Positions 23,050-64,000 of a stretch of DNA of 64,000 nucleotides are shown in pieces; positions within the stretch are counted from its first letter, which is position 1; the number at the start of each line of letters is the position of its first letter. The notes beneath the pieces were generated by a model. It worked only from the letters and a program-made list of their open reading frames with translations, made no database searches and was not told the DNA's origin. The DNA is from a phage, in NCBI GenBank assembly GCA_025823825.1, contig GCA_025823825.1_4720.1; one strand, 5' to 3'. The translations under genes were made by a program, and so were the position numbers.

Positions 23050-24360
23050 TTAAGCGATAATGGAATCAAGAGTCGCTGCGGTTTTGAACAGATCGCTGTT
23101 CATTGTAGAAGAAAGGACTTGCTGAATTTCTTCCTGTTTAACGGCTTTACGAACTCCAGGACGAAGGATAAGCGTAACAATCTGCATAAATGTACGGTTG
23201 TTGTTCATCGCGCTTAACGTTTCATCAATTGTTTTGATGGTATCTAACGTAGTGGAGCGTATGTCGCTAGGGAGGTCACGATCTTTCAGACGTATAATCA
23301 AATCTTGTTTGATTTTTCTGAATCGTTCCATATCGTTGTCATAGATGCTGTATGTCGGATCTAACCAAACTGCAAGCGCCATAGCAGCAACAAATATTGC
23401 CATACCAAGAATATTAACCGAGGTGAAGCTGATCGCTATCAAAATTGTCACGGCTGCATCTTTAATGAAGGAGAGCCAGAACATCGTTTTTGACTTCATG
23501 GAGTTGGTGCCATAAAGTCGAAACATTTTAGCAAGCCCGCTAACGAGATACTCCCCACTGCCGTGACGCGTAGCGAACTGATCGGCCATGAATTCGGAAG
23601 CAACGTCGGTATATCGTCCAGCGTTGTTTACATTTCTTAACTGCATCGCTTTGTTAGACACGTAAACCGTGTACCAGACACTACCGTCGTCTGAATCACT
23701 GATTTTGTCTACGTCGACGTTGGTATCCAACGTTTTGTTTAACGCTTTCGCCAGTTCGATACGTTTTACCTTATCGGTTGTTCCCAACAGTTCGCGCTGC
23801 ACGGTCATGATTGAGGCTTCGACACGAACCGTTTCCGACAATGTTTCAAGGAAGGTAAATGCGTGCCCGATTTCATGCAGCATTATGGCTGCTTTTTCTT
23901 CCGGAAGAAAGGGTTCTGTTGCTGTTAGCAATTCATACGTGATGGCAGAACGAATCTTCAATTCTTCAAAGATACCGTAAACACGACCTTTTTCTAAATC
24001 GACGTAACCGACAGGTGTATCTTTAATCTTCTTAAGGAGCGTAACACCATCAGCACCACGCATCCATAACCGGTGATAGTCTGCCAGGATTGTGTTGTTT
24101 GTCGAAATATCCGGCGGGTATACGTAGGCATTCATCTGACCCATTTTCACGTCGACCGAGAATTCGATGTTCAACCCCGTATAGCGTTTGACCATCTTGG
24201 TTAAATGACCGTCCTTGAAAACGTTTAAAACATCTTTTTTATCCAGTCCCTGTTTGCTTCTGAAGAACTCGGTCATTTCCTTGAACAAGGAACCATCCTG
24301 AAACTTGATGGCCTCCATCGTTAATTCGTCATGACCATACACGCGTTGTAGTAATGACAT
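23050..24360 (-). CDS. putative zinc metallopeptidase-like protein with HExxH motif and C-terminal transmembrane hairpin (436 aa)
   Basis: HEIGH zincin signature (MLHEIGHAF); about 40-residue hydrophobic stretch FWLSFIKDAAVTILIAISFTSVNILGMAIFVAAMALAVWL. Confidence 0.7.
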   Translation of the reverse strand: MSLLQRVYGHDELTMEAIKFQDGSLFKEMTEFFRSKQGLDKKDVLNVFKDGHLTKMVKRYTGLNIEFSVDVKMGQMNAYVYPPDISTNNTILADYHRLWMRGADGVTLLKKIKDTPVGYVDLEKGRVYGIFEELKIRSAITYELLTATEPFLPEEKAAIMLHEIGHAFTFLETLSETVRVEASIMTVQRELLGTTDKVKRIELAKALNKTLDTNVDVDKISDSDDGSVWYTVYVSNKAMQLRNVNNAGRYTDVASEFMADQFATRHGSGEYLVSGLAKMFRLYGTNSMKSKTMFWLSFIKDAAVTILIAISFTSVNILGMAIFVAAMALAVWLDPTYSIYDNDMERFRKIKQDLIIRLKDRDLPSDIRSTTLDTIKTIDETLSAMNNNRTFMQIVTLILRPGVRKAVKQEEIQQVLSSTMNSDLFKTAATLDSIIA

Positions 24361-24372
24361 TGTACACTCTCT

Positions 24373-24390
24373 AAATTTACGTAAATTTAA
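24373..24390. promoter_or_regulatory. perfect 18-bp AT-rich palindrome TAAATTTACGTAAATTTA in divergent intergenic region
   Basis: Self-complementary 18-mer about 13 nt upstream of the 23050-24360 start, inside the 220-nt gap separating it from the PolB-fragment gene. Confidence 0.4.
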
Positions 24391-24581
24391 GGGCTAATGG
24401 ATCGGCTGGCCGCACCAATCACAATGTGTTCGTTGCTATGCAACGGCATTCATAGAAATACCTTTTGACGGTAACATCACCCATCACACCCCAAGCAATA
24501 AGAGTGGTCGGTTAAAAACAACAGAACGTGAGGATGATATAGAAATTCACCTTTTAACACCTATTACGAGTTTAGCAAGCC

Positions 24582-26333
24582 ATGAGCGAACAAGAACGAA
24601 AACCTAAGAAGAAACTGCTCGGTATTCAATGTCGACACATCAGTTATAACGAAGCGAACGATGGCAGCAAGAACGACCTCATGATCGCAAAAGAGATCAT
24701 GTTCTTTGATGACAATACGCAAGCGACGAACCTTCGCTTCTTTGAGAATTACAAACGTCCGTTTTGGGTGACGGTAGAGAGTAAACGTAAGAACAAATAT
24801 AAAAAGGAAAGCGAGAAGCTCTCGCATGTGCGTCGCTACGATGTCCGCCAAAGCGAACTGGTTGAAAAGATCAGCTCGGTACTTTATAAAAGACGTGCTG
24901 ACGATAACACCCGTTTACAGCAGCTTGCACGGAGTCCATACCTCTATGGAACGGACGTTAGCGCCAGCTGTTATTTAAAAACCCAGTACAACACAAAATG
25001 GCCGGAATACGTCGATAAATTACCCGCTTCCATTGCCTGTTTCGATATCGAAACCGACGTTGTCCACGGACACGGTAAGATCGTTTGTATGTCTATTACA
25101 ATGGGATACAATGCGATACTTTGCTATACCAAGGACTTCGTTGGTCATATTCCGAATGCCATTGAGAAAACCCATGAGAAGATTCGATATTACCTGGCCG
25201 AACGTCTGAATACCAAAGAAGATCCCCACGCATTCGAAAAATATCAGTACGATGTTCGAATCGTAGAAAGCCCGGCACAAGCGGTCATCCAATGCATGCA
25301 GAAGGTTCACGAATGGCAGCCGGATTATCTCCTTGGCTGGAATATCGCGTTCGATATTCCGCGTATGCTCCAGGCACTGAACGAGGAAGGGTATCGTCCC
25401 GAGGATGTTTTCTCCGATCCTCGCGTACCACCTAAGTATCGTATTGCTCGCTGGGTGCCACCGAAGACCGACAAGGTATCTGCTTCAGGTCGTAAAACCA
25501 ACCTTACCCTCGAGCAAACCTGGCCGATGTTTTATACGATGGCTACGTATCAGGTTATGGATGCGATGTGTGGTTATAAGTTCGTTCGTTTAGGAAGACC
25601 GGATGAAGGACGCTATTCACTCGATGCGGTATTAGAGCGAAATAAATGCCATACGAAATTAAAAGCAATTCCTGGTACAGAAGGGTTCACGGAGCTCGCC
25701 TGGCACGAAGAGATGCAAACGAACCATCAAATCGACTACGGCGTATATAACCTTTGGGATAACCAGGGTATTGAGGCGTTGGACCAGAAAACAAAAGACT
25801 ATTCGATGACCATCCCTATCCGTTTAGCGGCGTCGGATTTGAAAGATTTCAGTTCTAACCCTAAACGTATCTGCGATAAACTTTTCTTCGTTTATCTTAA
25901 CCGTGGGGAAGTCATGGGATGTACCGCTGACGACATGACCCAGGAAGAAGATAAGTGGGTTATCTCACGAGCTGGACATATCGTCACATTACCATGCGAT
26001 CTCATGGCTGACAACGGCATTCATCTCTTCTGGGATATGCCGAACCTGAGAAGTTATATCCGTCTATTCGTTGCAGACCTTGACATTAGCAGTTCATACC
26101 CAAATGGGCAGATCCTGTTGAATCTATCCAGAGCATGTGTTTTTCGTGAGCTCTCGCGCATTGAGGGCGTCTCTGACTATCAATTCAGGAAGTTAGGTAT
26201 CAACTTTATTACCGGAGGTAAAACGAACGCTGTAGACTTCTGTAGAATCGTTTATAAAGCACCGTCGATGTTTGAACTTTTAGAACATTTCGATGCGACG
26301 CGTCCAAAAGAGGAAGCGCGGACCATCGAATGA
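24582..26333 (+). CDS. family B DNA polymerase N-terminal part: 3'-5' exonuclease domain plus palm motif A; motifs B and C absent (583 aa)
   Basis: Exo I FDIETD, Exo II WNIAFD, Exo III-like YNLWD, motif A-like DLDISSSYP; ORF stops about 75 aa after motif A with no KxxxNSxYG or YGDTDS. Confidence 0.65.
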   Translation: MSEQERKPKKKLLGIQCRHISYNEANDGSKNDLMIAKEIMFFDDNTQATNLRFFENYKRPFWVTVESKRKNKYKKESEKLSHVRRYDVRQSELVEKISSVLYKRRADDNTRLQQLARSPYLYGTDVSASCYLKTQYNTKWPEYVDKLPASIACFDIETDVVHGHGKIVCMSITMGYNAILCYTKDFVGHIPNAIEKTHEKIRYYLAERLNTKEDPHAFEKYQYDVRIVESPAQAVIQCMQKVHEWQPDYLLGWNIAFDIPRMLQALNEEGYRPEDVFSDPRVPPKYRIARWVPPKTDKVSASGRKTNLTLEQTWPMFYTMATYQVMDAMCGYKFVRLGRPDEGRYSLDAVLERNKCHTKLKAIPGTEGFTELAWHEEMQTNHQIDYGVYNLWDNQGIEALDQKTKDYSMTIPIRLAASDLKDFSSNPKRICDKLFFVYLNRGEVMGCTADDMTQEEDKWVISRAGHIVTLPCDLMADNGIHLFWDMPNLRSYIRLFVADLDISSSYPNGQILLNLSRACVFRELSRIEGVSDYQFRKLGINFITGGKTNAVDFCRIVYKAPSMFELLEHFDATRPKEEARTIE

Positions 26334-26359
26334 ATCAAGTATGTTGATCCTCGTTTAAC

Positions 26360-26430
26360 AAAAAAAGAAAACGCATGCGAAGCCCCTCCCCCTGGCGGAA
26401 GCCGGAGGGAGGGGTGGAGGTTTTATGCGT
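26360..26430. terminator. putative bidirectional intrinsic terminator between convergent PolB-fragment gene and 26433-26879
   Basis: Hairpin CCCCTCCC-N16-GGGAGGGG flanked by T-rich tracts on both strands (TTTTATGCGTTTTTAATTATT on plus; GCGTTTTCTTTTTTTG on minus). Confidence 0.6.
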
Positions 26431-26432
26431 TT

Positions 26433-26879
26433 TTAATTATTGCTGCTGGGGTTATCGCCCGGATTATATTCGATGCTGTAGGCGACGTCGCGGTCTGTCG
26501 TATGAACGACAAGCGTGACGGGGAAATCATAATGCGCGGTTTTGTCTCGAACGAACGGGGTAAAGAGATCCGTATAACGTATTAAGTCTTCCCTGGTGTA
26601 ATCGGAAGGGAAGAAGGCATCGATGGTTATTGAATCTTCATAGAGGCGTATGATCAGCTTATCCAGAAGGTTGCTATATTGGTTAGCTGGGGTGACGTTC
26701 AGGTGACAGAAGTCACCGTCTTCTGCTTCTCGCAATACCCATACCGTGGTATCCTGTAACGTATTTTCAAGGATCTCGAAAATGCAGTTTGCTGTAAGTC
26801 TTAGTTTATTTGTTACTTCATGGTTAGGGGAATAATGCTCACGAATGTTTTTCACTGCGTCTTTGATAGAGAAAGTCAT
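26433..26879 (-). CDS. small hypothetical protein, paralog family A (149 aa from internal ATG)
   Basis: Internal ATG (MTFSIKD) with AAAGGAG 9 nt upstream; C-terminal motif HYDFPVTLVVH...EYNPGD shared with 28869, 29394, 28099 and 31238 genes. Confidence 0.6.
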   Translation of the reverse strand: MTFSIKDAVKNIREHYSPNHEVTNKLRLTANCIFEILENTLQDTTVWVLREAEDGDFCHLNVTPANQYSNLLDKLIIRLYEDSITIDAFFPSDYTREDLIRYTDLFTPFVRDKTAHYDFPVTLVVHTTDRDVAYSIEYNPGDNPSSNN

Positions 26880-26892
26880 TGCTGCTGCTCCT

Positions 26893-27186
26893 TTAAAAGA
26901 TATCAAGCCATGAGGATGGAGGAACCAGTTCGCTGGTAAAGTAATCGCCACTGATACCACTATCATCAAAGTGACGTTCGTTGTAACACTGGACGAGCTT
27001 ACCTCCACGTTCTTTCTGATACCATCCAAGGATACTATTAAGACCTCTGTCCACGCATTCGAATGCTTGAGTAATAACATCCTCAACGACGGAGGCTGCC
27101 GTGGGACCATTGAATAGACGATCTAAGCGCTTTTTCATCGATTTGGTTTTCTCGTTCATGATTTCTTTTCCTGTTATAATCGGCAT
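26893..27186 (-). CDS. small hypothetical protein (97 aa)
   Basis: ATG start; RBS candidates inside adjacent hairpin arm (GGAAGGG) or internal AGGAAAAG before a second ATG. Confidence 0.55.
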   Translation of the reverse strand: MPIITGKEIMNEKTKSMKKRLDRLFNGPTAASVVEDVITQAFECVDRGLNSILGWYQKERGGKLVQCYNERHFDDSGISGDYFTSELVPPSSWLDIF

Positions 27187-27190
27187 ACAA

Positions 27191-27222
27191 CCCTTCCCCG
27201 GCCTTGACGGCTAGGGAAGGGG
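27191..27222. repeat. GC-rich extragenic hairpin element, degenerate copy (CCCTTCCCC...GGGAAGGGG)
   Basis: Imperfect stem, flanked by GGCATACAA...CTATGC. Confidence 0.45.
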
Positions 27223-27235
27223 CTATGCTACGTTG

Positions 27236-27634
27236 TTATGCTTCGCAATCAGCTGAAGGCGTCGCGCCTTTCTTACCAGCGATACGCCAAATCCGACACG
27301 CTGGGTAATGGTTAACCTCTAGAGAGCAAGGAATGTTATATTTCTCTTCCAGCGCATAAAGACATTTCGTTAGCTGCTCCAGCGCGTTCTCGTCGTGTCG
27401 TAACGCGTGGTGACCTAATCGATGTTGGTCGTTCTTTATATACGCCTCGAAGAGAACATGTTGGCGATGTACGCTGACGTTTACAGCCTCGAGTATAGCT
27501 TGGTCGAGCATACGACTAAAGCACATCAACGAGTCAGATACGTTTTCTCGCTTAACCAGATCGATCATGGCGGGAATATACGAATGGTCGATGTTATCGA
27601 TGACCGCTTTAGCGACGGAATCAGCAACGTTCAT
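27236..27634 (-). CDS. small hypothetical protein, paralog family B (132 aa from internal ATG; track start is GTG)
   Basis: N-terminus MNVADSVAKAVIDNIDH aligns with MSIVESIVKAVNDNIDH of 27671-28066; shared C-terminal EEKYNIP(C/F)SLEVN. Confidence 0.65.
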   Translation of the reverse strand: MNVADSVAKAVIDNIDHSYIPAMIDLVKRENVSDSLMCFSRMLDQAILEAVNVSVHRQHVLFEAYIKNDQHRLGHHALRHDENALEQLTKCLYALEEKYNIPCSLEVNHYPACRIWRIAGKKGATPSADCEA

Positions 27635-27670
27635 CTTTTTAATCCCTAGTTTGTTATTGATCACGTATAT

Positions 27671-28066
27671 TTACTCTTTGACGTCAGTTGTCGTTTCGAC
27701 ATGCTTCTCACTACTGACGTACCAGAGCAGGTACGTTGGGAAAAGATTGACCTCTAAGCTAAATGGGATATTGTATTTCTCTTCCATTTTGCAGAGATGT
27801 TCTTTAAGTAAATTTCTCGCGTCTCTGTCACCACGAACAGAGTGCCAGTCTAGTTCTTTGTTCTCCTTTACCAGGATCTCTACGATGATACGTTGCTCGT
27901 GAACCTCGGTTTTCACAGCGGCAAGTAAATCGCTGCTATCAAAACGGGTAAAACGAATGTATGAACCAGGTGTTTTTTCTTGTTTAATAATATCGATCAT
28001 GGTAGAAATGCGCGGATGATCGATGTTGTCGTTAACAGCTTTAACGATGGATTCTACAATGCTCAT
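27671..28066 (-). CDS. small hypothetical protein, paralog family B (131 aa)
   Basis: ATG with AAGGA RBS; tandem duplicate of 27236-27634. Confidence 0.7.
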   Translation of the reverse strand: MSIVESIVKAVNDNIDHPRISTMIDIIKQEKTPGSYIRFTRFDSSDLLAAVKTEVHEQRIIVEILVKENKELDWHSVRGDRDARNLLKEHLCKMEEKYNIPFSLEVNLFPTYLLWYVSSEKHVETTTDVKE

Positions 28067-28098
28067 TTTTTATCCTTAATGTTATCGATTTGGAAATA

Positions 28099-28866
28099 TT
28101 ACTTATTTTTGCTTTCTTTATAGACAGTTGTTACCCACGATGGGAAAGCCGGATGGAAACAGAGCGTGAACGTAACTGTCGTATCGTATTTAAACGCACA
28201 GTTCACTAACCGGGTATCTAACGTTTTCCTTAATCCGTCATCATCGTTATCGATGATGGTCATATCTCTTAATATCCCAAGCACGTTAACGCCATCGGGT
28301 GTCTGGGTTACGACAAGTCGTCGTAATGGCCCGCATGTATAGTCACGTACAAATCCTTTCTTCGGGTCCGATACCCTGTTTAACGCATCGTGATTTTTGA
28401 TGAATTCATCGGCGATACAATAGGTTTGTTCCCTTGCTTTATCGGGATCGTATTCTGCTAATAGTTCCTTCGTGTCGAACGTTATCATGTTATTATCATT
28501 CGATTCAGAAGGGAAACATAAAACTAAACGAACAGGGTATTCGTATTGATCTGTTCTTGTTTCGAAAGCATTAGCTAGACACGGCTTGTATGCCTTTGCG
28601 TCGACATTGTCCAAACATGGATGCAATAATGCATGAATAACGGCACCATCGTCAGTTAAACCGAATTCCAGAAATTGTACCCTATCAGTATCCGCTACGG
28701 TTTTCTGAAGGTACGCTTTACCGTTAACAATATCGGTATCCCACATATCGTCGTTTAACGATTCTTCAAACTTATCGAATATATGGTTTACGAGATTGAC
28801 GAGTTCATCAATACGGCACTGTTGGTTGAATTCGATTAATCGTTGAACTTTATCTTTGATAGACAT
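28099..28866 (-). CDS. hypothetical protein, family A-related with internally duplicated motif (255 aa)
   Basis: Contains two copies of the family A strand motif (QYEYPVRLVLCF and KYDTTVTFTLCF). Confidence 0.7.
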   Translation of the reverse strand: MSIKDKVQRLIEFNQQCRIDELVNLVNHIFDKFEESLNDDMWDTDIVNGKAYLQKTVADTDRVQFLEFGLTDDGAVIHALLHPCLDNVDAKAYKPCLANAFETRTDQYEYPVRLVLCFPSESNDNNMITFDTKELLAEYDPDKAREQTYCIADEFIKNHDALNRVSDPKKGFVRDYTCGPLRRLVVTQTPDGVNVLGILRDMTIIDNDDDGLRKTLDTRLVNCAFKYDTTVTFTLCFHPAFPSWVTTVYKESKNK

Positions 28867-28868
28867 GA

Positions 28869-29327
28869 TTACCCATTAGCTCCTTCTTCGTCTGGAGAGT
28901 ATTCCATCGTGTAGAATTCATAACCATCGGAAAACTTGAGTGTTAATGTAATAGGGAAATCGCACGGCATAGCTGATTTCGTAAATGCGTTATTAGCAAC
29001 ATCGGCCAACCGACGTATAGCATCAGTCCCGCTGACGCTGAACGGTAGTTGTATGTTGATAAGGATGCGGTGCTTGTAAACATGGAAAACAACGGTACTG
29101 TCAAGATAAACGCTATGGAACGGTATTGTTGGGATGCGTTCCACGATGGTAAAATACGTCCCGTCATTATCGCTATGTCCCACCGACCAAATATCGGATT
29201 TGCGTAGATTTTGTTTGAGAGATTCGATGCTTCGAGTGACGGTCTCATCAACAGGCGTGACGTAAGTGTCTTTATGCGAGTCGAAAAGTTCGTTGACGTT
29301 AGATTCGAATGAATACATTGTTGCCAT
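28869..29327 (-). CDS. small hypothetical protein, paralog family A (152 aa)
   Basis: ATG with GAGGTAG RBS; C-terminal PCDFPITLTLKFSDGYEFYTMEYSPDEEG. Confidence 0.7.
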   Translation of the reverse strand: MATMYSFESNVNELFDSHKDTYVTPVDETVTRSIESLKQNLRKSDIWSVGHSDNDGTYFTIVERIPTIPFHSVYLDSTVVFHVYKHRILINIQLPFSVSGTDAIRRLADVANNAFTKSAMPCDFPITLTLKFSDGYEFYTMEYSPDEEGANG

Positions 29328-48107: not shown

Positions 48108-49862
48108 TTATGCTGCTACATACCCAGGCCAACGTTCTCTTGGCCAGTTTGTTGCGCCCTGTCCAACGTTGTCCTTACCAGAAGTTACATTACTTACATC
48201 CCAACCACTAAGATCCTGGTTAAATGCGGTGTTGTTACGCATCATGAGGTCGATATTACGTAATGATTGGGTATTCCAGCCGGAAATGTCTTGGTTGAAT
48301 GCCGTGTTGTAAGCAAACATGTTAACAACGTTTTGTAATTTTGAAGTGTTCCAGCCGCTAATATCGCCATTGAACTGCATGTTCGAGAACATACTGCTAG
48401 CATCGATAAGACTATCTGTTTTCCAGTTAACCAGCTTGTTCTCATCAAGTGCGTTGCAACTACTGAACATGTAACTCATGTTGTTAACTTTGGATACATC
48501 CCATTTATCTAACCCGTTACCAACGAACTCGTAACAAGCTTGGAACATCCAGCTCATGTCGGTAACCTGGCACACATTCCATTTGCTAAAGTCGAGGTTG
48601 AGTTTTGCGCATCCGGAGAAAGTTTTATACATACTGGTGATACGACTAACATCCCATTCTTGAATGTTAGGATCATTAAGTATAGATAAGAATTGGAACA
48701 ATCCGTCTAACGACGTCCATTTCTCTGGAATACGGTTTGGTACTGTACGGAGCGATGAAAGGTTATTGGTTGACGGAGAGCGGAACATACCGTTATCCCA
48801 ATTTACGATTTCCGTAATGTTGTACCCACGGATCGTTTGGCGTCCATTACCATTATACACAGACCCTGTTGCAGTTATTGTATATTCGTTTGTATCAGCA
48901 TACGTATATTCAGCCTGTGTAGGCCACTCACCTATTACATCCCTATTCCCATCACCCCAGTCAATGGAAATATCTATCCAACCATCAAGATCTAGGGTAA
49001 CGGTCCCGCCATTGGTCTTCAGGATGTATTTACCTGCATTGTCGGTATAATAACAAACAATCATCGCACCGTACAGGTTACCAATTTGCCAATCATCCTT
49101 TTGAGTTACCGCGATTTGTGCTGTACCACGCTGTAAGAAAAGTACCGTACGGTTCTCGTCAGTCTGTAGTGCGGTTAGTGCTTGAGTCTTATCATCGTCG
49201 GTAATTTCACCGGCTTCCATTAAAGCACTTAACATTCTTTCGAAGTACTCGATAGGCAACTGAGGTCCTACCGACATATCAACTGATGGAACAGTGAGAT
49301 CATCCAATGCTGCTGCCGTTGCGAGGACTAATGATCCCTTGGCGGTGTCTGTTTCTTGGAGGTAACGCAGTCCCGTAATCTGGTACGCTTGAATGATTGT
49401 AATCAGATCCAGTGTATCGTTAATGACCTGTACTTGTAAATGTCCAGACCAAACATAGCTGCTTTCAGCAATCGGTAATTCGACCGACTGAATACCCGAC
49501 GTTTCAAAACTGATCTTCTTATTAAGATCGGCTTCCAGGAAATCAACAGCTAGGTCGAAATTTATACCGTACTTCTCAGCGATGGAATCTACAATGTTCC
49601 TGAAAGCAACATCGGTACTTACGATGAAACGTAACGGGATCCCGGTGAACGCGTTGGCAATATCTCGACGAACATACGTGAGCGACTGCTCGAAGAAATA
49701 AGGACTGTTATCTCCAGGTTTGATGGTTACCTGGCATACTTCAGGATGTTCAGCTGGAATGAAAGATTCGAATTTAACGTCGGTTTCCTTCAACGATAGC
49801 ATGTTCTTCCGGTTTACCAACGCCAGAAGATCAGCTTTCCACCCAGGATAAACTGTAGACAT
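48108..49862 (-). CDS. putative receptor-binding protein (585 aa): shared N-terminal anchor domain plus C-terminal DUF285/BspA-type repeats
   Basis: Internal ATG (MSTVYPGWKADLLALVNRKN) with GGAG RBS; C-terminal repeats ...MFxxxxxFNQDISGWNTxxxxNxxxMF... typical of the Mycoplasma DUF285 / BspA-like family. Confidence 0.7.
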   Translation of the reverse strand: MSTVYPGWKADLLALVNRKNMLSLKETDVKFESFIPAEHPEVCQVTIKPGDNSPYFFEQSLTYVRRDIANAFTGIPLRFIVSTDVAFRNIVDSIAEKYGINFDLAVDFLEADLNKKISFETSGIQSVELPIAESSYVWSGHLQVQVINDTLDLITIIQAYQITGLRYLQETDTAKGSLVLATAAALDDLTVPSVDMSVGPQLPIEYFERMLSALMEAGEITDDDKTQALTALQTDENRTVLFLQRGTAQIAVTQKDDWQIGNLYGAMIVCYYTDNAGKYILKTNGGTVTLDLDGWIDISIDWGDGNRDVIGEWPTQAEYTYADTNEYTITATGSVYNGNGRQTIRGYNITEIVNWDNGMFRSPSTNNLSSLRTVPNRIPEKWTSLDGLFQFLSILNDPNIQEWDVSRITSMYKTFSGCAKLNLDFSKWNVCQVTDMSWMFQACYEFVGNGLDKWDVSKVNNMSYMFSSCNALDENKLVNWKTDSLIDASSMFSNMQFNGDISGWNTSKLQNVVNMFAYNTAFNQDISGWNTQSLRNIDLMMRNNTAFNQDLSGWDVSNVTSGKDNVGQGATNWPRERWPGYVAA

Positions 49863-50063
49863 AAGCACTCCAATCATGGGGGCGAACGCCCCCCATCAGT
49901 TAAATGATCGTTTACGTCGCGTAAGGGTAATATAATTGCTGTGAGCCATATCAGAAGTTCACAACATTCTGAATCATAAGGTTACGTCGTTGGAAACAAA
50001 CCGATACAGATTCTTCATAGAACATTGAGATGATGGAAACCTAATTCGTACCATGAAAGCCGC

Positions 50064-62215: not shown

Positions 62216-64000
<1,785 letters not shown>

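Follow-up and report, generated by a model that had tools for sequence, protein, structure and literature searches.

The 583-aa open reading frame (ORF) at positions 24582..26333 (+) of the 64-kb stretch of phage DNA analysed here (the window) very probably encodes DNAPN, the N-terminal subunit of a heteromeric replicative family B DNA polymerase (PolB) of a Goslar-like nucleus-forming jumbo phage (Chimalliviridae, phiKZ-like), a reading to which we give a probability of about 0.9. The split-polymerase arrangement itself is already known, having been published for Goslar and, in 2012, for the phiKZ-related phages, the latter finding being reportedly that of Cornelissen et al. One later source speaks of the 'split subunit DNA polymerase' of phiKZ (PMC5105663), and a 2026 preprint describes a three-subunit complex of Goslar, DNAPN-DNAPC-Rhc (PMC13648698), with whose DNAPN the present ORF has been equated from the name and the architecture. 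The window comes from a close relative of Escherichia phage Goslar, a chimallivirus, with 96% nucleotide identity at the DNAPN gene; the encoded protein differs from the product of the spliced Goslar gene by 2 aa and ends at an identical stop. Gene, length class, motifs and separation from the partner are those of the split polymerase of the phiKZ-related phages, with no difference in kind.

The gene starts with ATG, was taken from a program-made list of ORFs and is the ortholog of Goslar gp068. The sequence-only reading of this DNA had described a 583-aa ORF with three exonuclease motifs and a polymerase motif A, and all four were found where it had put them, on the plus strand: Exo I (FDIETD, aa 154-159, 25041..25058, with D155 and E157 as catalytic residues), Exo II (NIAFD, aa 254-258, 25341..25355, with N254 and D258) and Exo III (YNLWD, aa 389-393, 25746..25760, with Y389 and D393), each placed by sequence position and alignment, and motif A (DLDISSSYP, aa 499-507, 26076..26102), placed by position and by collinearity with RB69 residues 404-430. 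It had also held that the ORF stops about 75 residues further on without motif B or motif C; the stop codon lies 76 residues past motif A, and both motifs are indeed absent from the ORF. In an alignment of 40 homologs (33-66% identity), residues D155, E157, T158, W253, N254, D258, Y389 and D393 are invariant in 40/40 sequences, as are D499, D501, Y506, P507 and N514 in the region of motif A; judged from this alignment, chance is excluded as the source of the exonuclease and motif A matches. The spacing of motif A (D501-x4-Y506-P507, with N514 at +8) has its counterpart in D411/Y416/N424 of RB69 gp43, and on aligned position D501 corresponds to D411, the metal-binding Asp, and Y506 to Y416. The remaining aa 508-583 (26103..26330, +) form a C-terminal tail that family conservation marks as family-specific, with the consensus '..GINLTGGxxNAxE..'; N549 is invariant and A550 and P561 are conserved in at least 90% of the same 40 homologs.

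The DNAPN family has diverged too far for the Pfam model DNA_pol_B_exo1 to capture it, so that its membership in family B rests on fold, profile and motifs. A match to that model, which had been suggested as a check, is present (PF03104, the only Pfam match of the ORF, aa 147-264, E 0.0083), but its 16 bits fall below the gathering cut-off of 23 bits. PHROG 3011 ('DNA polymerase'), on the other hand, is matched from end to end with E 5.3e-178 (protein 8-576 against profile 5-570 of 576 positions), and together with the typical length this match places the protein among DNAPN of the PHROG 3011 type. The AF2 model has a mean pLDDT of 84, with values of about 85-98 over aa 1-455 (24582..25946, +), the PolB N-terminal domain and 3'-5' exonuclease domain as delimited by the confident model and Foldseek; residues 460-583, with the tail modelled alone, reach 44-79, and in this poorly modelled part the fold of the palm fragment is only tentative. 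Foldseek against the PDB gave RB69 gp43 as the best match (E 4.2e-13 over ~460 columns), followed by T4 gp43, Pol epsilon and E. coli Pol II, and all of the top 50 matches (50/50) are family B polymerases. A profile built from the 40 homologs also matched RB69 gp43 in the PDB (E 4.8e-7) in three collinear stretches: Exo II pairs with 'WNVEsFDIP' of RB69, Exo III pairs with 'YNIID' inside the significant stretch 312-431 / RB69 270-380, and the third stretch, 'hvaDLDvsstYPngevvlNiskett' against RB69 404-430, scores 2.2 bits and by itself is not significant. A stand-alone DnaQ-like 3'-5' exonuclease without motif A, the case that the earlier reading had set against its own proposal, does not fit these data, the protein having an N-terminal domain of ~150 aa, a conserved motif A and a tail, and its fold and profile matches being full family B polymerases that include the N-terminal domain. 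The family B features present are the carboxylates of Exo I-III, the N-terminal and exonuclease fold and motif A (its RB69 stretch being weak alone); motifs B and C, which a complete PolB carries on the same polypeptide, are not among them.

No other ORF of the window supplies the missing polymerase domains, as had been claimed from the letters alone: a six-frame motif scan of the 64 kb found neither motif B nor a DTDS motif C in any open frame >150 codons, and tblastn with the polymerase half of Goslar gave no homolog there either (best E 3.7). One of the two explanations offered earlier, that of two subunits with a gene each, the C-terminal half lying at a distance of over 24 kb, is borne out by Goslar, in which gp244, the DNAPC subunit, carries motif B (KLDNNSLSG) at residue 152 and DTDS at residue 405. 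This 717-aa protein matches Pfam PF20286 (divDNApol) with E 2.4e-204; its gene (174,314-176,467) lies on the other strand than that of gp068 (79,690), at a distance of about 93 kb. The split PolB of phiKZ and the Chimalliviridae can be described by the same pair, an N half (Goslar gp068, PHROG 3011) and a C half (Goslar gp244, PF20286 divDNApol), and the record of 201phi2-1 links Goslar gp244 to 201phi2-1 gp83, phiKZ gp50 and EL gp21. Among 50,697 phage records, 291 contain the N half and 291 the C half, the breakdown by genus being identical for both, and in the records listed for both halves the genes lie tens of kb apart (e.g., ~28 kb in SPFM17 and ~93 kb in Goslar). From the Goslar gene and this 291/291 co-occurrence we infer that the present genome has a DNAPC gene as well, outside the window. 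Two other assignments were considered and rejected. Goslar gp039 ('polymerase', PHROG 2943) shows no PolB motifs and no Pfam match, whereas gp244 matches divDNApol; the segment 'ANCYP' of gp244, taken as a possible second motif A, lacks conservation across nine orthologs, and the position five residues upstream is not an Asp.

According to the proposed mechanism, DNAPN would contribute three parts: the N-terminal domain of PolB, a proofreading 3'-5' exonuclease that is intact, and the first element of the palm, which bears motif A (D501, Y506). DNAPC, transcribed and translated on its own, would bring the fingers with motif B and the thumb, together with motif C (DTDS), the KxY motif and a long insert of helices. 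The two chains would associate non-covalently, and one polymerase active site, presumably composite, would be rebuilt from residues of both. In the DNAPC profile, positions 482-535 align with RB69 705-758 (KKRY; E 4.6e-4) and positions 89-167 with Pol zeta (E 0.0018), and positions 78-147 align with RB69 435-505 weakly (4.3 bits, not significant alone). On these alignments the chain break falls near RB69 residue 430-435, some 20 residues past motif A, its exact position resting on collinearity and invariant columns since the RB69 motif A stretch and the DNAPC 78-147 stretch are individually non-significant. The DNAPN tail (~70 residues) and the DNAPC head (~77 residues, with only F5 and Y12 invariant in the N-terminus of nine sequences), both lacking a counterpart in RB69, would then form the interface, and aa 508-583 of DNAPN may hold the remaining palm fragment together with a docking surface for the C-terminal subunit. 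These lineage-specific extensions may have evolved as an obligate interface. The fuller proposal, in which the active site is truly composite with the extensions as its obligate interface and motif A is a recurrent landing site of introns, both possibly undescribed, is put forward tentatively, and we think it rather doubtful.

The composite site differs from the published view, which has a self-contained RRM-palm polymerase and an accessory exonuclease; a divergent PolB without a fused exonuclease has been described (PMC7824862). On such lines the ORF could be a stand-alone proofreading exonuclease working beside a self-sufficient DNAPC, its motif A-like sequence being a non-catalytic vestige. 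A passage of Iyer et al. was counted in favour of this alternative, as was the observation that aa 1-455 are the only part of DNAPN that AF2 folds confidently. However, the invariance of D499, D501, Y506, P507 and N514 in the 40 homologs is unexpected for a vestige, and in nine diverse DNAPC sequences the part before motif B has no invariant acidic residue (Asp or Glu) that could replace the Asp of motif A. The alignment of DNAPC with RB69, moreover, begins only at about residue 435, past motif A, and the co-occurrence of the two genes also speaks for a two-subunit enzyme, all of which makes an exonuclease-only role very improbable.

A two-subunit replicase is likewise to be preferred over the joining of the halves after expression, by a split intein or by RNA trans-splicing, into a single-chain PolB. 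Split inteins join the halves of some archaeal PolB, and these phages often carry group I introns, one of them in the Goslar copy of the DNAPN gene itself. Additionally, phmmer with the single DNAPN protein against the PDB, which gave no significant match, returned an intein as the best hit (E 0.43); this hit was judged a chance match, being non-significant and located at aa 386-465, in the region of Exo III rather than at the C-terminus. Pfam finds no Hint/intein domain in DNAPN, the tail has neither a conserved junction Cys or Ser nor a TxxH block, the N-terminus of DNAPC lacks an HN-C/S/T junction, and no Rfam family was found in 24000-27000 at E up to 1. The Goslar genes lie on opposite strands at the distance given above, and the 2026 preprint describes subunits of a complex (PMC13648698). 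The DNAPN gene is closed, besides, by its stop codon and a G+C-rich hairpin with T-rich runs flanking it on both strands (26382..26415, between convergent genes, located by folding), which is probably a bidirectional intrinsic terminator ending the DNAPN transcript; the segment 26372-26440 folds with -36.6 kcal/mol (z -4.3), none of 200 shuffles being as stable, although a consensus terminator scan missed the hairpin. With this evidence, the joining of the halves is a still more remote prospect than an exonuclease-only role. At the other end of the gene, the ORF layout leaves an intergenic region of 221 nt (24361..24581) between DNAPN and a divergent gene (23050..24360, -), which presumably holds one or more promoters; a consensus scan of this region found no sigma-70-like site and no overall enrichment.

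The second explanation offered earlier, an intein, intron or frameshift in the window, did not hold: besides the lack of an intein domain and of an Rfam match and the hairpin that follows the stop, the exact 583-aa protein was found in 8 independently assembled contigs, and the listed relatives also end before motif B. A contig that carries the identical protein is, for instance, NODE_3 of ENA ERZ13617233, 233 kb long. DNAPN relatives are mostly 546-640 aa long, with a typical family length of about 560-600 aa, and those listed stop ~71-110 residues past motif A, with P0122 (894 aa) as the exception. P0122 was considered as a fused form and rejected, since its extra 330 residues form an acidic tail of low complexity in which neither motif B nor motif C occurs. 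A contiguous full-length PolB, which the earlier reading had expected to see after the correction of a sequencing error if it was wrong, did not appear in any relative: no fused PolB reaching motif B or C occurs among the 120 listed of 209 matches, nor among the best 150 of 1,609 cluster representatives. An artefact (frameshift, assembly error or unrecognised intron) cutting such a PolB is effectively refuted, for although the RefSeq copy in Goslar is truly truncated (499 aa) by an unrecognised intron and in about 25 of 266 database relatives the gene call breaks off within motif A, such interruptions precede the real stop, and the 8 identical assemblies, the terminator hairpin and convergent gene downstream of the stop, the length of the relatives and the lack of a polymerase-half homolog anywhere in the 64 kb all stand against it.

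The Goslar gene is itself interrupted by an unannotated group I intron of 1,762 nt at Goslar positions 81,187-82,948, which lies inside the motif A codons and carries an HNH/NUMOD1 endonuclease gene. It matches Rfam RF00028 (Intron_gpI) with 44.7 bits and E 1.5e-9, slightly below the gathering score of 50. Since this third group I intron was not recognised, Goslar gp068 stands in RefSeq as a protein of 499 aa; splicing restores the 583-aa product, with the stop unchanged. The window allele, in contrast, has neither the intron nor the homing endonuclease gene: an empty, intron-less homing site lies between codons D499 and L500 (26078..26079, +), as located by the blastn breakpoints against Goslar and the exon junctions, and no homolog of the Goslar intron endonuclease gp069 was found in the window (best E 0.3). 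The motif A codons of the two alleles differ at 14 of 27 nt, and all of the differences are synonymous. Phages of E. coli that are nearly identical carry the gene either with the intron (Goslar) or without it (window), and mobile group I introns may insert into the motif A of DNAPN repeatedly.

Among known polymerases, gp43 of RB69 and T4 resembles DNAPN as the best structural match of its N-terminal and exonuclease domains, with Exo II, Exo III and motif A in collinear order, and resembles DNAPC in the alignments at the fingers and the KKRY region. It differs from DNAPC, where motifs B and C are separated by a long helical insert (PMC7824862). Furthermore, gp43 is one chain of about 900 aa, whereas the PolB of the jumbo phages would be broken ~20 residues past motif A with extensions at both ends, and sequence identity to gp43 is only 13-16%. 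In archaea, split PolB enzymes are found as PolB1 and PolB2 of Methanothermobacter and in Nanoarchaeum equitans, in which the halves are joined by a split intein. They are like DNAPN and DNAPC in that two genes divide the enzyme within its polymerase domain, but they belong to a different lineage, and the protein trans-splicing of N. equitans contrasts with the lack of an intein signature in DNAPN and DNAPC. A phage family B replicase made from two cistrons is also found in the T4-like Aeromonas phages 25 and 44RR, where gene 43 exists as cistrons 43A and 43B, the products of which co-purify and are polymerase-active according to a source citing Petrov et al., 2006 (PMC2988022). Cistrons 43A and 43B are adjacent, with either an untranslated spacer or the gene of a seg homing endonuclease between them, whereas the DNAPN and DNAPC genes lie tens of kb apart and often on opposite strands. 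Additionally, the split of gene 43 is limited to a few phages that have relatives with an intact gene, unlike the DNAPN/DNAPC split, which is fixed across the lineage (291 genomes).

For annotation, the appropriate name of the ORF is N-terminal subunit of the replicase, and labels such as truncated, pseudogenised or hypothetical should be avoided, the absence of motifs B and C from DNAPN being no sign of error; the comparison with Goslar adds a small correction to the RefSeq entry of gp068 (499 aa). If the homing-site reading is true, the pair of alleles would lend itself naturally to studies of intron homing, or of interference competition, within the phage nucleus. What the arrangement means, as already stated in the literature, is that in a whole lineage of viruses an essential replicase can exist as two permanently separate parts, the cut running through the catalytic palm domain and the halves lying tens of kb apart.

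The open reading frame of DNAPN, the N subunit, lies at 24582..26333 (+) and encodes 583 aa; the ORF list and motif positions bear out the sequence-only reading of Exo I (FDIETD, aa 154-159), Exo II (NIAFD, aa 254-258), Exo III (YNLWD, aa 389-393) and motif A (DLDISSSYP, aa 499-507; window 26076-26102), with 76 residues between motif A and the stop codon. The sole megablast match of the window is Escherichia phage vB_EcoM_Goslar (Goslar; 96% identity), a nucleus-forming jumbo phage of 237 kb whose ~55-123.5 kb region is collinear with it and whose gp068, annotated 'DNA polymerase', is the counterpart of DNAPN. Elsewhere in the window, 62529-64000 (-) holds the 3' part of a NAD-dependent DNA ligase gene cut by the right window end (OB fold, zinc finger, HhH and BRCT present, adenylation domain cut off), an ortholog of Goslar gp121 at ~90% identity vs 96% elsewhere; the product of 48108-49877 (-), 589 aa long, combines DUF7941 with DUF285 (BspA-like leucine-rich repeat) and is annotated like gp161, which is located elsewhere in the Goslar genome.

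DNAPN matches PHROG 3011 ('DNA polymerase') end to end (E 5.3e-178), and its family is very divergent, since Pfam DNA_pol_B_exo1 scores just 16 bits, under the Pfam cut-off. A search of 5.8 billion proteins gave 209 homologs, of which the 120 listed span 457-703 aa and lie mostly on contigs of at most 322 kb. In an alignment of 40 homologs (33-66% identity), the exonuclease catalytic residues D155, E157, N254, D258, Y389 and D393 are invariant, as are D499, D501, Y506, P507 and N514 of motif A. The AlphaFold2 model built from this alignment (mean pLDDT 84; 85-98 for aa 1-455 and 44-79 for aa 460-583) has RB69 gp43, a single-chain family B polymerase, as its nearest solved structure (E 4.2e-13, ~460 columns), followed by T4 gp43, Pol epsilon and E. 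coli Pol II, all of them full family B polymerases. The family profile also found RB69 gp43 in the PDB (E 4.8e-7) through three collinear stretches: Exo II ('WNid.FDip' on 'WNVEsFDIP'), Exo III ('YNlfD' on 'YNIID') and motif A, where profile 480-506 ('DLDvsstYPngevvlNis') falls on RB69 404-430, placing D501, Y506 and N514 on RB69 D411, Y416 and N424, a stretch that is collinear but by itself non-significant. Family, invariance, fold and profile matches together indicate that DNAPN is the front part of a family B polymerase, running from its N-terminal domain through the exonuclease domain to the first palm element.

The claim that no other ORF in the window supplies the missing domains held: scanning all six frames of the 64 kb with regular expressions revealed neither motif B nor a Y/F-x-DTDS motif C in open frames >150 codons, and tblastn with Goslar gp244 found no homolog (best E 3.7). 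Beyond the window, the sole other PolB-like gene of Goslar, gp244 (174,314-176,467, -; 717 aa), adjoins the nuclear-shell gene, matches Pfam PF20286 'Divergent Family B DNA polymerase' (E 2.4e-204) and PHROG 2927, and has both motif B (KLDNNSLSG, residue 152) and motif C (DTDS, residue 405). Goslar gp039 ('polymerase', PHROG 2943), lacking PolB motifs, was set aside. The main reading, separately encoded subunits with a distant partner (DNAPC), is thereby supported, the partner being read in Goslar. Among nine diverse DNAPC orthologs (Goslar, 201phi2-1, Ea35-70, SL2, PCH45, SPFM17, Vibrio sm033, OBP and Aeromonas D3), the only invariant residues upstream of motif B are F5, Y12, R73, P96, R122, K126 and Q148; none is acidic, and DNAPC therefore has no motif A of its own. 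Its profile aligns with RB69 705-758 (KKRY and thumb; E 4.6e-4) and, in the region of the fingers and motif B, with Pol zeta and Pol delta; from position 78 there is also a weak alignment with RB69 435-505. In most of eight DNAPC loci (L011-L018), a ~125-140-aa gene lies immediately upstream on the same strand, in agreement with the conserved SH3-fold neighbour of Iyer et al. 2021 (PMC7824862); 201phi2-1 differs in having its upstream gene on the other strand.

Combining the DNAPN motif A alignment with the DNAPC profile alignment, the polymerase chain would be broken at about RB69 residue 430-435, leaving a ~70-residue DNAPN tail and a ~77-residue DNAPC head without RB69 counterpart, which probably form the subunit interface. 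The low pLDDT of aa 460-583 in the isolated DNAPN model would fit a segment whose folding depends on the partner. Sequence comparison thus gives evidence that the exonuclease subunit carries motif A, and with it one half of the metal-binding site, while the partner offers no substitute.

The sequence-only reading had also considered an intron, intein or frameshift. For the window this is rejected: the identical 583-aa DNAPN recurs on 8 contigs from independent assemblies (one of 233 kb), no Rfam family matches 24000-27000, and neither Pfam on DNAPN nor the DNAPN and DNAPC alignments revealed an intein domain or junction residues. A hairpin 49 nt past the stop (-36.6 kcal/mol, z -4.3), with T runs at its sides on either strand, lies between DNAPN and the convergent gene and likewise speaks against it. 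Five small genes convergent with DNAPN (26433-29327, -) include tandem paralogs (27236-27664 and 27671-28066; 38% identity, E 1e-31) and distant relatives (26433-27110 and 28869-29327; 24%, E 2e-4); against Goslar this block shows 78% identity or no match, its flanks 96%.

An intron does, however, occur in the relative Goslar, where a group I intron of 1,762 nt (NC_048170 81,187-82,948, or 7498-9259 of Goslar stretch L001) separates motif A codons D499 and L500 of the DNAPN gene; it contains the HNH/NUMOD1 endonuclease gene gp069 and matches Rfam Intron_gpI at 44.7 bits (E 1.5e-9), narrowly short of the gathering score of 50. Splicing after GAT and before CTC, the intron ending in G, yields a 583-aa protein with the same stop and 2 differences from that of the window; this intron therefore lies within the N-subunit gene and is unrelated to the polymerase split. 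Neither this intron nor exon 2 is in the RefSeq annotation, whose two Intron_gpI features are others, and gp068 is consequently given as 499 aa. The window is the intron-less allele at this site. Of 81 nt differences from the spliced Goslar gene, 25 fall within 90 nt (26022-26111; gene nt 1441-1530), and the nine motif A codons are synonymously altered at 14 of their 27 nt; such clustering resembles a co-conversion tract, or else recoding of the site that the homing endonuclease targets. Gene calls in ~25 of 266 DNAPN relatives stop inside motif A (among them P0042, P0055, P0077, P0080, P0107, P0108, P0112, P0174, P0196, P0220 and P0227), with at least three break points (after ..VAD, ..ADLD and ..DLDV), and P0093, P0105, P0113, P0241 and P0252 end at or just past the conserved 'W-I' of the upstream 'GWIVTLP' motif, a pattern suggestive of mobile elements having inserted repeatedly at two conserved sites across the family. 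The 637-aa P0220 also bears a ~145-aa N-terminal extension, macro (ADP-ribose-binding) domain-like by eye, which could reflect either a genuine fusion or the merging of gene calls.

The separately encoded arrangement appears general. Across 50,697 phage genomes, tblastn located each of the two halves in 291 records, with an identical genus breakdown (Pseudomonas 81, Erwinia 62, Salmonella 24, Vibrio 23, Serratia 21, Aeromonas 20, others). In records listed in both tables, the halves are ~28 kb apart in SPFM17 and Huxley, ~35-36 kb in SL2 and OBP, ~41 kb in 201phi2-1, ~50 kb in Ea35-70 and ~93 kb in Goslar. A contiguous full-length PolB was not recovered: when 1.84 billion cluster representatives were searched exhaustively with the profile, 1,609 matched (609 at E ≤ 1e-30), and none of the best 150 (450-894 aa) reaches motif B. 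The extra length of one long relative, P0122, is a low-complexity acidic tail, not a fusion. In the 176 of 266 collected sequences matching the motif A pattern, a median of ~80 residues (minimum 71) separates motif A from the C-terminus. A stand-alone DnaQ-like nuclease is ruled out by the structure and profile matches to full RB69-type polymerases and by the invariant motif A.

A split family B polymerase of the DNAPN type is already known. Thomas et al. 2016 (PMC5105663), citing a 2012 OBP comparative study, describe the phiKZ 'split subunit DNA polymerase' as recognised ten years after the genome was sequenced. Iyer et al. 2021 (PMC7824862), who defined the divergent PolB found in group 1 jumbo phages, noted that no 3'-5' exonuclease is fused to it, the exonuclease being 'encoded elsewhere'. 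For Goslar, a 2026 preprint (PMC13648698) reports a three-subunit complex of DNAPN, DNAPC and Rhc. In another lineage, Aeromonas phages 25 and 44RR, gene 43 is split as 43A/43B, whose products co-purify and are active (PMC2988022). The additions made here are modest: evidence for the placement of motif A on the exonuclease subunit, a rough position for the break on RB69, and a pair of intron-plus and intron-minus alleles at motif A.
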